64,000 nt of DNA, taken from an uncultured Patescibacteria group bacterium. GTDB taxonomy: Bacteria; Patescibacteriota; Microgenomatia; UBA10105; UBA927. The DNA is taken from NCBI GenBank assembly GCA_937921305.1, contig CAKZSU010000006.1, forward strand, positions 70,646 through 134,645, read 5' to 3'. Within the stretch, counting starts at the first letter, position 1; each line of letters opens with the position of its first letter. Shown piece by piece: positions 5,717-8,593 of this stretch. Below the pieces are notes generated by a model. That model did not search any database, was not told the origin of the DNA, and saw nothing but the letters and a program-made list of their open reading frames with translations. The position numbers and the translations under genes were made by a program.

Positions 5717-5899
5717 TTCAAATTGTTTGTAGTAAAAAACTATAAGTCTATTATACTAACAAAAAAAACTGAAATAGTCAATTAATTCATTGAATTAATC
5801 GTATAAAATAAAAATTTTTAAGAGAAATCTTTAAAGACTAATAAGAATTTTAAGAGAATTTTAAGAATCATTAGAGTTTTTATATTGGGATTAATTTTT

Positions 5900-5942
5900 A
5901 ATTGAAATAAAAACTTCAGTTTTTATTTCAATTATATTTTTT
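5900..5942 (+). terminator. Perfect 15-bp inverted repeat (AATTGAAATAAAAAC / GTTTTTATTTCAATT, 4-nt loop) followed by a T-tract; terminator-like hairpin in the AT-rich island
   Basis: Read directly from the sequence at 5900-5933; ATATTTTTT follows at 5934-5942. Orientation favours + strand termination, yet no + strand gene lies upstream, so it may be a relic. Confidence 0.3.
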
Positions 5943-5975
5943 GTAAATTTCTACTTCATTATCTTGATATTTTTT

Positions 5976-7440
5976 TCAAAAAATATGTACATTACGATTA
6001 TCTTTCAGCGATTTTGTCGTTGAGTCCTCATTTCTTCCTTGCGTAATAAAAGATTTATACATAAAAATCCAATCTGCATATGTTTGAGGATTTTTAATGG
6101 ATTCAATCCAATAATGCTGAGTTCCTTCATGGATATATGTTTTATATGGAATCTTCATATAAAACATAACTGGTTCATGTTGCAAAGAACTTATCATTAT
6201 ATATCCAGAATCATAATTCTCTTGAAACCATTCTACGTATGGTTTGTTTTTCCAATGAAGTTCTGAATATCTTATCAAATCAAGATATCTTGGAAGATTG
6301 CATTGTAAATAAAGTAGATTTGTATTTGAAGCAATTATTTGAATAAACATTAATATAAAATTAATATTTTATTATATATACTTAATGCAGATAATATTCC
6401 TATAAGGAAAATAAAAAAATGGAATACATTTAATCCATATCGAATGTTATATTCTTTAAACATATAATTGTCGATATTAAAAATACTGATCAAATTCAAA
6501 TTTGGAGCTTTTAATGGAAAAACTCCTTTAAGAGAAAATGCGATGAATAAAAAAACACTAACTGGAAATAATAAAGCAAGCAAACTTATCTTCTGATTGA
6601 AATTTAATCTTTTTATATATAAAGCTACAAATTGCTAATATAATAATTATGTAAACAAATAATATTCCATTTATTTGAGCTACTACATTAAAATATTTAA
6701 TAAACGCAATATGCAAAGGTAAAATAATTTTCTCATTAAATCCTTCAATATGCTGTCTATTTTCATATTCAAGAGAAATGATGTTCGTTTTTCCCATGTA
6801 AACCTTCATCCAATAAAATGGATCTTTGAAAATGAGAAACTGATATGCAGACCAGGGAAAAATTCCTATTCCAGAAAGAAAGGTAAACAACACAAACATC
6901 CCTTCTACTTTATTAGAAGTAAATTTTTTTACTATTGAAATAAAAATAAACAAAAAATAGATGTTAAGAAAATAAAATAACCTTCATAACGAGTTAATGT
7001 TGAAAGAAAAACAAAAAAACCAAAAAAATAAGAATAAAAATTTATCTGTAAAAATCCAACTAATAAAATAATACATAGTTCCTAAAATAGTCATAATAAA
7101 AAACATCTCAGACATTGGTGCTGATTGTATATATAAAATATTAATGTTTAAAAGCAAAACTAATGCAGATAAGGAAGATGCTATTTTGTCTTTATATGAG
7201 AGATATGTCATTTTATAAGAAAACATTATTGAAATTAAAAAAGAGATATTTGATATCATCGTTCCTGATATTCCCGTATGCCAAATCTAATCATTCCATA
7301 TAAATGGAAAATTCAATATATGAGGCAAAGGCAACCATAAAGTTCCAATTTGTCCTAATCCTGGCATTAAATTATCAATTATCTTTCTTGCAATATTTAA
7401 TCTCGCTATAGCATCATAATAATACAATGTAAAATCTTTA
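5976..7440 (-). pseudogene. Degenerate GT-C-type membrane glycosyltransferase (ArnT/PMT-like, GT39/GT83-like) broken into >=5 fragments
   Basis: Consecutive short minus-strand ORFs (5976-6350, 6350-6583, 6558-6953, 6984-7259) plus an upstream in-frame stretch ...YYYDAIARLNIARKIIDNLMPGLGQIGTLWLPLPHILNFPFIWND*IWHTGISGTMISNISFLISIMF... containing an internal stop. All fragments are polytopic and hydrophobic, as expected for GT-C enzymes. The region is ~25% GC against ~38% elsewhere. Confidence 0.4.
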
Positions 7441-7559
7441 TTTAAAATAAATATATACTCGTTACAAAACTTACAACAGAGGAAAGTATTATAACTATCT
7501 TTAAATTAACTAAATTAATTACATTTATAATCTATTCATGGTTATGAATTAGTTTTTTT

Positions 7560-8575
7560 AATTAAATATAAAATTTTATTTATAAGAGAATGACTGCTTT
7601 CAGTTTTTAAATCAAAAACATATTTCTGATAACCATATTCCTCAACAAAATCTTCGCATTTTCTTTCCTAATGAATAGGAATCAAGGGTATTTTTAAGAG
7701 ATAAGCAAAAACTAAAGAATGAAACCTCATTCCAATAAAAACATTACATAAACTCATTATTCCTATTACTTCTCTCGGATGATAATGTTTTTTAAAACAT
7801 GAACATATTTTTTATATCTAAGATTTTTAACAATATATTCTGCTAAGATATTATCTCTTTCCGTATTTTGTAATTTACCATGACAAAAAGGAATAATCAG
7901 AACATCTATCTTTTTTTATTAAGAAAATCAATTGCTTGTATAATATTCTTCTCTAAAGAATTGTCTTGTATTAAATGTTCAAACCTTTTATTGAAAAACC
8001 TATCAAGTAATTAGTTGAAAAGTTGATTTTCTCTTCTTTAAGAATTTCAAAAACTCGTTTTTTATTAACAGGAGTAAGATAGAAAGCTGGATCTTTTAAT
8101 AAAAAGACACATCTAAATTTTTCTAACAAGATTTAAACATTAATATGATGATAAATCTCTCAATGCTACTTTATCAGAAAAAATCATTGTTATATACAAA
8201 ATGAATCGTTCCAAAATACTAGCAGTAGGATATACTCCTATAAATTCATAAATAACTGTTTTTCCAATAATTTTATTAAAATAGAAAAAATTGGAATAAA
8301 TCTTGCTATAAGACCTGTATATGCACTAAAAATCCCACCACCCCAAATAACTATACTATCTACTAGTAAAAATTTTTATGAAAGAATATAGATTTAATTT
8401 AAGAGGCGTTGCTAACGAAAATTCATAAATGTCATCTAAGTAATTTCTGGCAAAAAACATATTGCTTATGATTAGGAAACTTCTTTTTATATCTAAGACT
8501 TAATACAAATAAAATTGCATCATCTCCTATATTTCTATTACCATAATTTCCTATAAATAATATAGATTTCTTCAT
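7560..8575 (-). pseudogene. Polysaccharide pyruvyl transferase (CsaB/WcaK family) remnant, multiply frameshifted
   Basis: Hand translation of the minus strand from 8575 gives MKKSILFIGNYGNRNIGDDAILFVLSLRYKKKFPNHKQ, which is the characteristic pyruvyl-transferase N-terminus. After a stop the reading continues in other frames (...VIWGGGIFSAYTGLIARFIPIFFYFNKIIGKTVIYEFIGVYP...). The ORF track shows no ORF >60 aa here. Confidence 0.5.
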
Positions 8576-8593
8576 GAAAAAGAGAAATAAATT

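Follow-up and report, generated by a model that had tools for sequence, protein, structure and literature searches.

Why does a Patescibacteria surface-sugar gene cluster contain, between two intact genes, an AT-rich stretch of 2.9 kb in which every reading frame is broken? An earlier note on this DNA read the stretch as glycan-modification genes decaying in situ rather than as an insertion. We examined it within the window, i.e. the whole analysed sequence of 64,000 nucleotides, and found that it comprises a pyruvyl transferase gene followed by a gene of a GT-C-fold membrane glycosyltransferase, both inactivated, which together form a glycan-modification cassette. The stretch is the remnant of a recently broken two-gene cassette that was AT-rich already when intact and was probably acquired from elsewhere, and we regard this explanation as a whole, insertion followed by decay, as likely.

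The existence of the AT-rich island itself was borne out by a sliding GC profile. The GC content of positions 5717-8593 is approximately 0.24, versus 0.33-0.41 in the neighbouring genes, with values of 0.21-0.25 in the 500-nt windows covering 5501-8750. When all 500-nt windows of the 64 kb were considered, GC values below 0.29 were confined to 5401-9000, and the lowest-GC segment of 2877 nt in the whole sequence starts at 5701 (GC 0.235; median 0.393). A fine profile placed the edges of the dip at about 5640 and 8700, so that it slightly overlaps the 5' end of an 838-aa gene on one side and the 3' tail of a 753-aa gene on the other.

Both of these flanking genes are intact and lie on the minus strand. 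The 753-aa protein (8594-10855), which is the conserved anchor of the locus, carries two GT2 domains (PF00535, E=4.4e-40; PF13641/PF13632) and a membrane segment, and is referred to below as GT2x2. A contig scan confirmed 165 relatives of this protein, and the 80 loci that were fetched bear Patescibacteria or placeholder labels. The 838-aa protein (3200-5716) is a fusion of a flippase-like N-terminal part (Polysacc_synt, weak PF01943) with a GT4 glycosyltransferase (PF00534, E=8.6e-42; PF13439). Many homologues, about 1300 aa long, have this flippase-GT4 protein further fused to GT2 domains. Within the island, by comparison, the longest ORF encodes 131 aa and only broken ORFs are present, all on the minus strand.

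The first of the broken genes (7546-8575, minus strand, 3' end approximate) is a polysaccharide pyruvyl transferase pseudogene. Its ATG lies at 8575-8573, and behind it about 9 indels break the frame and two nonsense substitutions (GAA>TAA at 8142 and TAT>TAG at 7670) occur, as judged against the reading frame of an intact orthologue in the related locus L004; the island thus holds no intact ORF for an active pyruvyl transferase. The peptide MKKSILFIGNYGNRNIGDDAILFVL, quoted in the earlier note, was located at 8575-8432 of the minus strand, and tblastn HSPs of the pseudogene are spread over three frames. The protein stitched from the fragments matches PF04230 directly (E=7e-20; 72.5 bits, cutoff 25.3) and over nearly the full profile (positions 1-276 of 280). 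Its closest homologue, P0075, is the intact L004 protein, which also carries PF04230 (59% identity, 99% coverage). The assignment to a pyruvyl transferase with multiple frameshifts is therefore correct, but the proposed CsaB/WcaK-like label exceeds the evidence. The stitched protein shows partial similarity to the CsaB and WcaK models; however, it falls far short of the equivalog cutoffs (TIGR03609 CsaB, 69.2 versus 213.1 bits; TIGR04006, 22.2 versus 399; NF007452, 20.2 versus 727.1). The Pfam family is established and the subfamily is not: the dead gene is to be considered neither CsaB nor WcaK.

The second broken gene (5976-7545, minus strand) encoded a polytopic membrane glycosyltransferase, whose original stop codon is at 5976-5978 and whose intact orthologue has 544 aa. 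Its frame is broken by about 6-8 indels; in addition, a nonsense substitution (TGG>TAG) is present at 7289, further stops occur in the shifted segments, and the ORF calls split the gene into pieces of 91, 131, 77 and 124 aa. The earlier description of a polytopic GT-C gene with an in-frame stop was thus right as to a broken gene of this kind and wrong as to a single lesion. A query stitched from the fragments retrieved 74 homologues, the best of which, P0001, is 62% identical over 100% of the query.

Because direct profile searches with the stitched protein gave no Pfam or NCBIfam match (E up to 1), the GT-C assignment was made through homologues and a predicted fold. The closest intact orthologue, P0001, likewise has no Pfam family at E<=0.01, so neither sequence matches PMT_2 (PF13231) or CAZy GT39-GT83 directly. 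PF13231 is matched by 17 of the 31 members of the family, the more distant ones (best E=3.5e-12), and a search of the PDB sequences with the family profile returned noise only. The structure test was run on P0001, i.e. on the 62% identical orthologue and not on the pseudogene itself. Its AlphaFold2 model is of high confidence (pLDDT 89.6, pTM 0.91), and each of the top 43 Foldseek matches in the PDB is a GT-C enzyme; 18 of these matches have E<=1e-3, and the TM-scores are 0.4-0.57. Among the enzymes matched are STT3, DPY19, ALG12, PglB, ArnT (5f15, TM 0.50), AftA/B, Emb and PMT, so that the orthologue has the GT-C architecture by similarity to solved enzymes.

The alignment of the 31 members revealed a nearly invariant D39 and invariant R48 and D52. 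The window copy retains the corresponding motif, YYYDAIARLNIARKIID, and with it the acidic residue that the family conserves in its first extracytoplasmic loop, which is presumably catalytic, judging from what is known of ArnT, PMT and STT3. The enzyme presumably used a lipid-linked sugar. The family resembles the PMT_2/ArnT-type transferases in its polytopic organization of about 540 aa, its near-invariant loop Asp (YGDA/YYDA), its C-terminal soluble domain and its predicted fold, which is also close to that of STT3, PglB, DPY19 and ALG12. It differs from them in that the stitched protein and P0001 reach no Pfam or NCBIfam model and in the modest TM-scores. Both gene identities proposed earlier were therefore sound at the level of the fold or family, the pyruvyl transferase directly and the GT-C gene via transitive homology, while the ArnT/PMT-like (GT39/GT83) placement goes beyond the evidence; the protein represents a distinct, uncharacterised Patescibacterial subfamily.

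Taken together, the two genes bear about 17 frame-breaking indels and three clear nonsense substitutions relative to their intact L004 orthologues, and both are true pseudogenes. Sequencing or assembly errors, or artefacts of a population consensus, could in principle mimic such lesions in genes that are really intact; many of the indels adjoin A/T runs, and 2/3 assemblies break inside the island, with L002 ending at 7137, L003 ending at 8362 and L088 starting at 6929. We consider this very improbable, because nearly all the lesions are common to at least 4 independent assemblies from different runs, among which the sole differences are an 11-bp indel in the spacer and, in the pyruvyl transferase pseudogene, two 1-nt indels. 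Homopolymer error as the source of the lesions was rejected on two grounds: the density of A/T runs in the island is similar to that in the flanks (7.3/kb versus 5.6-5.7/kb), which are free of frameshifts, and three of the lesions are clean nonsense substitutions. Moreover, some indels are of 2 and 8 nt. It is harder still to believe that the region functions in some other way, through an alternative code, programmed frameshifting, phase variation, a non-coding RNA or a regulatory spacer. The 124-aa C-terminal fragment does retain an ATG and an open frame, and 1-nt indel polymorphism among the strains superficially resembles phase variation, but these indels restore neither frame. A stop-codon reassignment (codes 4 and 25) was excluded, as TAA, TAG and TGA all occur in frame and the reading hops among three frames, with about 17 frame changes required, and the flanking genes are normal in code 11. 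No Rfam match exceeded noise (the best, at E=0.1, was to a microRNA family), and promoter-like sites are not enriched (19 versus 28 +/- 4.5 expected).

The time of inactivation was approached by comparison with L004. The NG86 dN/dS values are 0.229 for the pyruvyl transferase and 0.232 for the GT-C gene, versus 0.14 for an intact neighbour, with dS of about 0.9-1.0. In a relative-rate test, the excess of change was significant for the pyruvyl transferase (17 versus 6, p=0.035) and not for the GT-C gene (23 versus 19). As amino-acid change is barely accelerated, inactivation is recent relative to the split of the window and L004 lineages. Over 20.9 kb, 14 substitutions and 3 indels separate the window from the near-identical strain L001, and the island accounts for 6 of the former and all of the latter, a 7-fold enrichment (odds ratio 7; Fisher p=1.5e-4); the same pattern was seen against L093. 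These differences show that decay continues and that the region now evolves without constraint. The genes decayed in place, since the intact pair is found at the corresponding site in L004 and the differences between near-identical strains are concentrated within the island.

L004, which answers the earlier call for a synteny comparison, contains the intact pyruvyl transferase and GT-C genes followed by a 251-nt spacer and the N-terminus of the flippase-GT4 gene, with 73-78% nucleotide identity to the window across all parts. This sole close intact reference lies in a metagenome-assembled genome labelled as a DPANN archaeon; the label is probably due to mis-binning of a short AT-rich contig. 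The L004 lineage is represented by JAWAFH010000145.1 of assembly GCA_038890575.1 and by Logan contig P0207. The low GC content had been regarded as a companion of the decay, which did not hold: the GC values of the intact L004 genes are 0.288 (pyruvyl transferase) and 0.249 (GT-C), and that of the spacer is 0.19, compared with 0.376 in the flanking gene, while the window pseudogenes, at 0.238 and 0.239, are only slightly lower. As the intact copy is equally AT-rich, the composition is a property of the cassette and not a product of its decay. AT-biased drift was ruled out as the main cause of the low GC for the same reason; strain SNPs polarised with L004 had mixed directions and showed no clear AT-biased drift, although this outgroup is too saturated (dS of about 1). 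Neither is the gene family inherently AT-rich, since p540, a GT-C paralogue in the same genome, has a GC content of 0.40 and the homologues in L085 and L087 match the GC of their hosts.

In L090/L091, the closest long collinear relative, the site is empty: GT2x2 and flippase-GT4 are 233 nt apart with no cassette between them, and the loci are collinear with the window on both sides over about 17 kb, where the nucleotide identity is 63-75% (GT2x2: 71% at the amino-acid level). Whether this reflects gain or loss was judged from the majority state. Among 82 surveyed instances, GT2x2 is directly followed by flippase-GT4 in 48, and a GT-C gene occupies that slot in 19. In the nearest homologous pairs (L085, L087 and L092) the order is GT2x2, flippase-GT4, pyruvyl transferase, GT-C, whereas here the pair lies between GT2x2 and flippase-GT4. 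The claim of in situ decay rather than insertion was thus half right, as the empty site, the foreign composition and a 31-nt bracketing repeat (see below) speak against setting insertion aside. No donor came to light: identity drops to 41-48% in the next-best homologues, and of these only the L092 pyruvyl transferase is AT-rich. The protein database held nothing between 62% and 41-45% identity, and a metagenome scan yielded one locus (42%).

The spacer between the GT-C pseudogene and flippase-GT4 (5717-5975, minus strand; GC 0.15-0.21) is 49% identical overall to its L004 counterpart and contains several elements. The 11-bp tandem duplication AGAATTTTAAG at 5844-5854 varies among strains and is missing from L001. 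Upstream of flippase-GT4 lies a promoter-like element (5753-5781, minus strand), detected by a consensus scan, which consists of TTGACT, 17 nt and an extended -10 region (TG-n-TAGTAT/TATAAT) followed by the conserved GACTTATAGT. A three-way alignment of the window, L004 and the empty-site L090 has the invariant positions ATTGA ... TG.TA..AT ... G.CTTATAGT. Supported by the consensus match and by conservation in three sequences, this putative promoter may allow the genes downstream to be transcribed without any contribution from the dead cassette. An inverted repeat of 17 bp with perfect pairing (5899-5934, 100% complementary) encloses a 2-nt loop and lies 41 nt downstream of the stop codon of the GT-C gene. 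It is no canonical intrinsic terminator because it lacks a T-tract, and no terminator-like sites were called in the region; it could be the transcription stop of the cassette or a recombination site.

The same spacer harbours the right-hand copy (5873-5903) of a 31-nt direct repeat that brackets the cassette. The left-hand copy (8607-8637) is identical at 27 of the 31 positions and falls within the part of the intact GT2x2 gene that encodes the C-terminal tail (KIKIIPNKKIL), which is not conserved. This repeat was noticed post hoc. Its score of 21 (null 11.5 +/- 1.5) was never reached when the boundary zone was shuffled by mononucleotides (2000 shuffles) or when the island was shuffled (500 shuffles); it was reached in 2 of 3000 Markov-2 simulations and in none of 2160 pairs of real island zones. 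The nucleotide homology between the GT2x2 genes of the window and L090 ends at window position 8695. The right-hand copy may be a ghost of the GT2x2 3' end that was duplicated when the cassette was inserted. The repeat is missing from the L004 spacer, and the L004 left junction lies out of view, as that contig starts inside the pyruvyl transferase gene. A comparison of the L090 spacer with the junctions in the window yielded an alignment for the 30 nt next to the promoter only (score 12.5, reached by 88 of 1000 shuffles), and nothing aligned at the left junction.

A purely vertical history would account for part of these observations. The cassette would then be an old resident whose low GC content arose from AT-biased mutation together with weak selection on variable glycan genes that are seldom expressed; a clean deletion would have removed it from L090, and the lineage studied here would be losing it more slowly. 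The presence of a GT-C gene after GT2x2 in 19 of the 82 instances means that the cassette could be ancestral and L090 the loser. Intact low-GC genes recur in or near the slot (L005, L010, L020, L066, L077 and L092), which might point to a locus-specific regime. The pyruvyl transferase pseudogene is about 5 GC points below its intact orthologue (129 versus 77 GC/AT differences). Mobility genes are absent too: as the earlier note had stated, the region has no integrase or transposase ORFs. The repeat search revealed neither long terminal repeats nor terminal inverted repeats beyond AT-rich noise, and no RNA family was detected. Nevertheless, we consider such a history unlikely. The L004 genes, which are intact and under selection, already show the deficit of 10-13 GC points, while paralogues in the same genome have the GC content of the host; the gene order differs from that of the nearest homologous pairs; the cassette is bracketed by the direct repeat; and adjacency or fusion of GT2x2 and flippase-GT4 is the majority state.

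The best reading, in which we have fairly good confidence, combines both processes, i.e. insertion in the common ancestor of the window and L004 lineages and later decay in place. A cassette from a more AT-rich donor would have entered a surface-glycan locus of a Patescibacteria (Microgenomates-type) host, between the normally adjacent GT2x2 and flippase-GT4 genes. It is still intact in the L004 lineage, and in the present lineage both genes are dead, having been inactivated recently relative to the split of the two. Its loss may have been tolerated or even favoured, because a GT-C paralogue of host-like GC content and another pyruvyl transferase are located downstream, and because the flippase-GT4 operon, with its own conserved promoter, would suffer no polar damage from the dead cassette. 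The downstream part of the cluster contains an intact pyruvyl transferase (pyr417), a 524-aa membrane protein and p540, which is 33% identical to P0001 (E=2e-68). The survival of these paralogues suggests redundancy, as far as can be judged from gene content. However, pyr417 and p540 are only about 20% and 33% identical to the lost genes, and with identities so low their substrates probably differ from those of the latter. As a net effect, the envelope glycan would have lost one of its decorations, pyruvylated or glycosylated, which would amount to a serotype change.

The gain and loss of low-GC, glycan-specific genes have long been known from O-antigen and capsule loci, and the present case is an ordinary one, which resembles the low-GC genes and wzy remnants found in Salmonella O-antigen clusters. 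To our knowledge, the envelope glycans of this Patescibacteria lineage are essentially unstudied, and our literature search on Patescibacteria pyruvyl transferases and CPR glycosyltransferase pseudogenes found nothing relevant. In the Salmonella cluster, glycan-specific transferase and processing genes have GC contents of 28-37% in a genome of 51-52%, and a dead remnant of a membrane glycan-processing gene persists in place while another copy elsewhere supplies a function (PMC3715488). The locus described here is similar to that of Salmonella enterica groups B1/D1 in its low GC within a surface-polysaccharide cluster (24-29% versus 36-40%) and in the position of non-functional genes between intact biosynthetic genes. 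On the other hand, the host is an uncultured member of the Patescibacteria (CPR) without a known O antigen, the dead genes encode a pyruvyl transferase and a GT-C enzyme rather than Wzy, and the damage consists of many small indels instead of IS insertion and serial deletion, with no IS or H-repeat present.

The significance of a single such locus is small; it indicates that the same dynamics of gain and loss operate in an uncultured Patescibacteria lineage. The analysis also defines a conserved module composed of GT2x2, the flippase-GT4 fusion, a pyruvyl transferase and the GT-C subfamily, the last with a high-confidence structural model. Moreover, it calls for caution in annotation, as the fragments have been deposited as separate hypothetical proteins, whose called length (75, 91, 113, 124 or 131 aa) varies between assemblies. 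As a more doubtful extension, the site beside GT2x2 might be a general exchange slot in CPR surface-glycan loci, into which AT-rich cassettes are repeatedly swapped and from which they are discarded. If so, the window would have caught one discard under way, and the duplicated junction would hint at the mechanism of insertion. GT-C, pyruvyl transferase and GT4 cassettes would then be swapped as in serotype switching, which would imply that phages or hosts exert strong diversifying pressure on the episymbionts' envelope.

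The island at 5717-8593 is the most AT-rich part of the 64 kb and contains broken ORFs, as the earlier note had claimed. In 500-nt windows, GC dips to 0.21-0.25 between approximately 5500 and 8750, compared with 0.33-0.41 in the neighbouring genes, and all windows with GC below 0.29 are confined to 5401-9000. At the 2877-nt scale, the minimum (0.235; median 0.393) starts at 5701. The minus strand is the coding strand for every gene of this region. The longest island ORF has 131 aa, while the genes on either side are unbroken, with 753 aa (the double-GT2 gene GT2x2, 8594-10855, minus strand) and 838 aa (the flippase-GT4 fusion gene, 3200-5716, minus strand). 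Three-frame translation reveals recognisable protein segments that are spread over all three frames and interrupted by TAA, TAG and TGA. As the three stop codons are mixed within the segments and the frame itself hops, an alternative genetic code cannot restore the genes and was ruled out.

The fragments from 8575 to approximately 7550 (minus strand), when stitched, match PF04230 (polysaccharide pyruvyl transferase) with E=7e-20 over profile positions 1-276 of 280. This supports the proposed pyruvyl transferase (pyr), but not its description as CsaB/WcaK-like, as the stitched protein lies far under the CsaB and WcaK equivalog cutoffs in the profile search. The second pseudogene (from approximately 7545 to 5976, minus strand) was recognised from its stitched fragments, its homologues and the predicted fold of an orthologue. 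The stitched protein has no match in Pfam or NCBIfam. A database search recovered 74 homologues of about 530-545 aa covering the entire query; of the 31 family members in the alignment, 17 match PF13231 (PMT_2) on their own, and an Asp of the first loop is almost invariant. The AlphaFold model, which represents the closest intact orthologue and not the pseudogene itself, has a pLDDT of 89.6 and a pTM of 0.91, and its best 43 PDB matches are GT-C enzymes throughout, including STT3, DPY19, ALG12/9, PglB, ArnT (TM 0.50), AglB, AftA/B, PMT and Emb. These matches, together with the family evidence, indicate that the predicted fold of the second gene is GT-C; the earlier label is thus retained for the fold, and not for direct GT39/GT83 membership.

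Both genes are intact on a single 3454-nt contig, L004 (JAWAFH010000145.1, GCA_038890575.1), which bears the best matches to both stitched proteins. Its pyr product (P0075) is 59% identical to the stitched pyr and its GT-C product (P0001) 62% identical to the stitched GT-C; the next-best homologues reach only 41-45%. In L004 the two unbroken genes have the same order as in the window and overlap by 8 nt, and downstream of GT-C lie a 251-nt spacer and the first part of a flippase-GT4 counterpart with 78.8% nucleotide identity to the 838-aa gene. Based on gene order, spacer and flanking gene, we regard L004 as the orthologous locus of a sister lineage; the synteny comparison suggested earlier finds both genes retained there in the same position. 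The intact L004 cassette is also as AT-rich as the dead one (GC of pyr 0.288, GT-C 0.249, spacer 0.19; flanking gene 0.376), and the window copies have GC of 0.238 (pyr) and 0.239 (GT-C) at the aligned positions. This speaks against the implied tie of low GC to decay: low GC belongs to the cassette itself, with a further drop of at most ~5 points in the pyr pseudogene.

The cassette's sole close intact reference, L004, comes from a MAG that carries the label Candidatus Anstonellales archaeon (DPANN). This label is likely a binning error affecting a short AT-rich contig, because the window encodes RuvABC, a bacterial release factor, FtsEX and TsaE, the third L004 gene is so similar to its counterpart, and the L004 spacer has a bacterial-type promoter motif in common with the window. 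Alternatively, it may reflect a true CPR-to-DPANN transfer.

Relative to the L004 reading frame, the cassette carries ~17 frame-breaking indels (~9 in pyr and ~8 within or at the edge of GT-C) and three nonsense substitutions, at 8142 (GAA>TAA), 7670 (TAT>TAG) and 7289 (TGG>TAG), all on the minus strand, and tblastn matches to pyr are distributed over three frames. The two genes are indeed pseudogenes. Sequencing artefacts were rejected as the source of the lesions, because these are common to the near-identical strains or assemblies L001, L002, L088/L094 and L093 (independent assemblies, several runs), the density of A/T runs (7.3 per kb) is near that of the unbroken flanks (5.6-5.7), and 2-nt and 8-nt indels occur besides the nonsense substitutions. 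The dN/dS ratio versus L004 is 0.23 in each pseudogene and 0.14 in the intact neighbour (dS ~0.9-1.0), and in relative-rate tests with outgroups GT-C had no excess change (23 vs 19), and the excess for pyr was modest (17 vs 6, p=0.035). Hence most of the divergence built up under purifying selection, and the inactivation is recent, with indels predominating.

The island is now free of constraint. When the window is compared with L001 (99.87% identity across 20.9 kb), the 2.9-kb island takes 6 of 14 substitutions and 3 of 3 indels (odds ratio 7, p=1.5e-4); it also holds 6 of the 11 differences from L093, and two assemblies have contig breaks within it. An 11-bp tandem duplication in the spacer (5844-5865; AGAATTTTAAG x2), which the window has and L001 lacks, is a strain length polymorphism; the putative promoter of flippase-GT4 lies ~65-100 nt downstream of it. 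In the pyr pseudogene, three substitutions and a 1-nt indel fall inside 85 nt (7934-8018), with L001, L002 and L093 alike versus the window; this cluster could have arisen by recombination over a short tract or in one multi-nucleotide mutation. Immediately upstream of the GT2x2 start codon (10856-10862), L093 differs from the window by a 2-nt indel, and the start call differs along with it (750 aa and 753 aa, respectively).

Elsewhere in the window, a TsaD-family (PF00814) ORF of 106-117 aa (12313-12666; L001 8190-8543) overlaps the end of tsaE and, being far shorter than a normal TsaD/TsaB, could be truncated or the remnant of a gene. At 23768-24668 (minus strand), two ORFs overlap in different frames (202 aa with a TTG start and 191 aa with an ATG start); they may represent a further gene broken by a frameshift, or a pair of overlapping genes. 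The sole tRNA found within the 64 kb is tRNA-Glu (CTC) at 36416-36490.

A scan of genome contigs showed that the GT2x2 anchor locus is widespread in Patescibacteria (165 confirmed relatives); the 80 loci fetched from these are labelled Levy-, Roizman-, Gottesman- or Woesebacteria, or have placeholder names. The gene directly after GT2x2 is the flippase-GT4 fusion in 48/82 cases, a GT-C gene in 19/82 and a pyruvyl transferase in 1/82. Many Patescibacteria have GT2 domains and flippase-GT4 fused in single proteins of ~1300-1400 aa (e.g. P0092, P0099, P0107, P0116), which implies tight functional coupling of the two island-flanking genes. The closest relative with long contigs (L090/L091; amino-acid identity 71% for GT2x2 and 60% for flippase-GT4) is collinear with the window for ~17 kb on both sides and has just 233 nt between these genes, i.e. 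an empty site. Among other loci with homologues of the pair, the nearest (L085, L087, L092) place it after flippase-GT4 (GT2x2, flippase-GT4, pyr, GT-C), and its GC resembles that of the host in L085 and L087. A direct repeat of 31 nt (27/31 identical), noticed post hoc, lies either side of the cassette: the copy at 8607-8637 falls in the variable 3' tail of GT2x2, and the one at 5873-5903 in the spacer ahead of flippase-GT4. Its score beats 2160/2160 real zone pairs and was matched by 2/3000 Markov simulations.

The empty site may mean that the cassette is ancestral and that L090 lost it. However, the empty site, the neighbour survey, the gene order and the repeat together lead us to prefer a history in which a compositionally foreign cassette entered the locus in the ancestor shared by the window and L004 lineages. 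Acquisition and then recent in-place decay is our best reading: the in situ decay proposed earlier is upheld, whereas its contrast with insertion is not, given the empty site.

Intact glycan genes with GC 10-19 points under that of the flanks occur in or near the same slot, downstream of a GT2x2/flippase-GT4 homologue, in the unrelated Patescibacteria L005, L010, L020, L066, L077 and L092 (e.g. 0.27-0.30 versus 0.46-0.51 in L066). Judging from this recurrence, the conserved locus appears to have a variable, exchangeable low-GC section resembling O-antigen clusters. We consider it rather doubtful that this slot serves for cassette exchange generally across the glycan loci of Patescibacteria.

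The loss would be tolerated since related intact genes remain in the same cluster. Beyond window position 1, the 6834-11277 region of L088 encodes an intact, distantly related PF04230 pyruvyl transferase (417 aa), a polytopic membrane protein without a Pfam match (524 aa) and p540 (540 aa), which is paralogous to the decayed GT-C gene (33% identity to P0001, E=2e-68; GC 0.40). This second trio is followed in L088 by genes for a DRL-like dehydrogenase, an apiosidase-family protein, an fn3 protein and a sortase. Upstream of flippase-GT4, a promoter-like element (5753-5781; TTGACT, 17 nt, an extended -10, then GACTTATAGT) is kept in L004 and in the empty-site relative, and the genes downstream probably have no need of transcription through the dead cassette. 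Redundancy and independent transcription are functions that we infer.

Searches of the literature for pyruvyl transferases of Patescibacteria, and for glycosyltransferase pseudogenes in CPR bacteria, turned up nothing relevant. Among known systems, the O-antigen cluster of Salmonella comes nearest, where in groups B1 and D1 a non-functional wzy remnant stays put after another wzy was gained elsewhere (PMC3715488). The island represents such an event in a CPR bacterium, although the genes lost are a pyruvyl transferase and a GT-C transferase instead of wzy, and small indels, not IS elements and deletions, account for the decay. Its general interest is low, the case being a further instance of known O-antigen-type dynamics.
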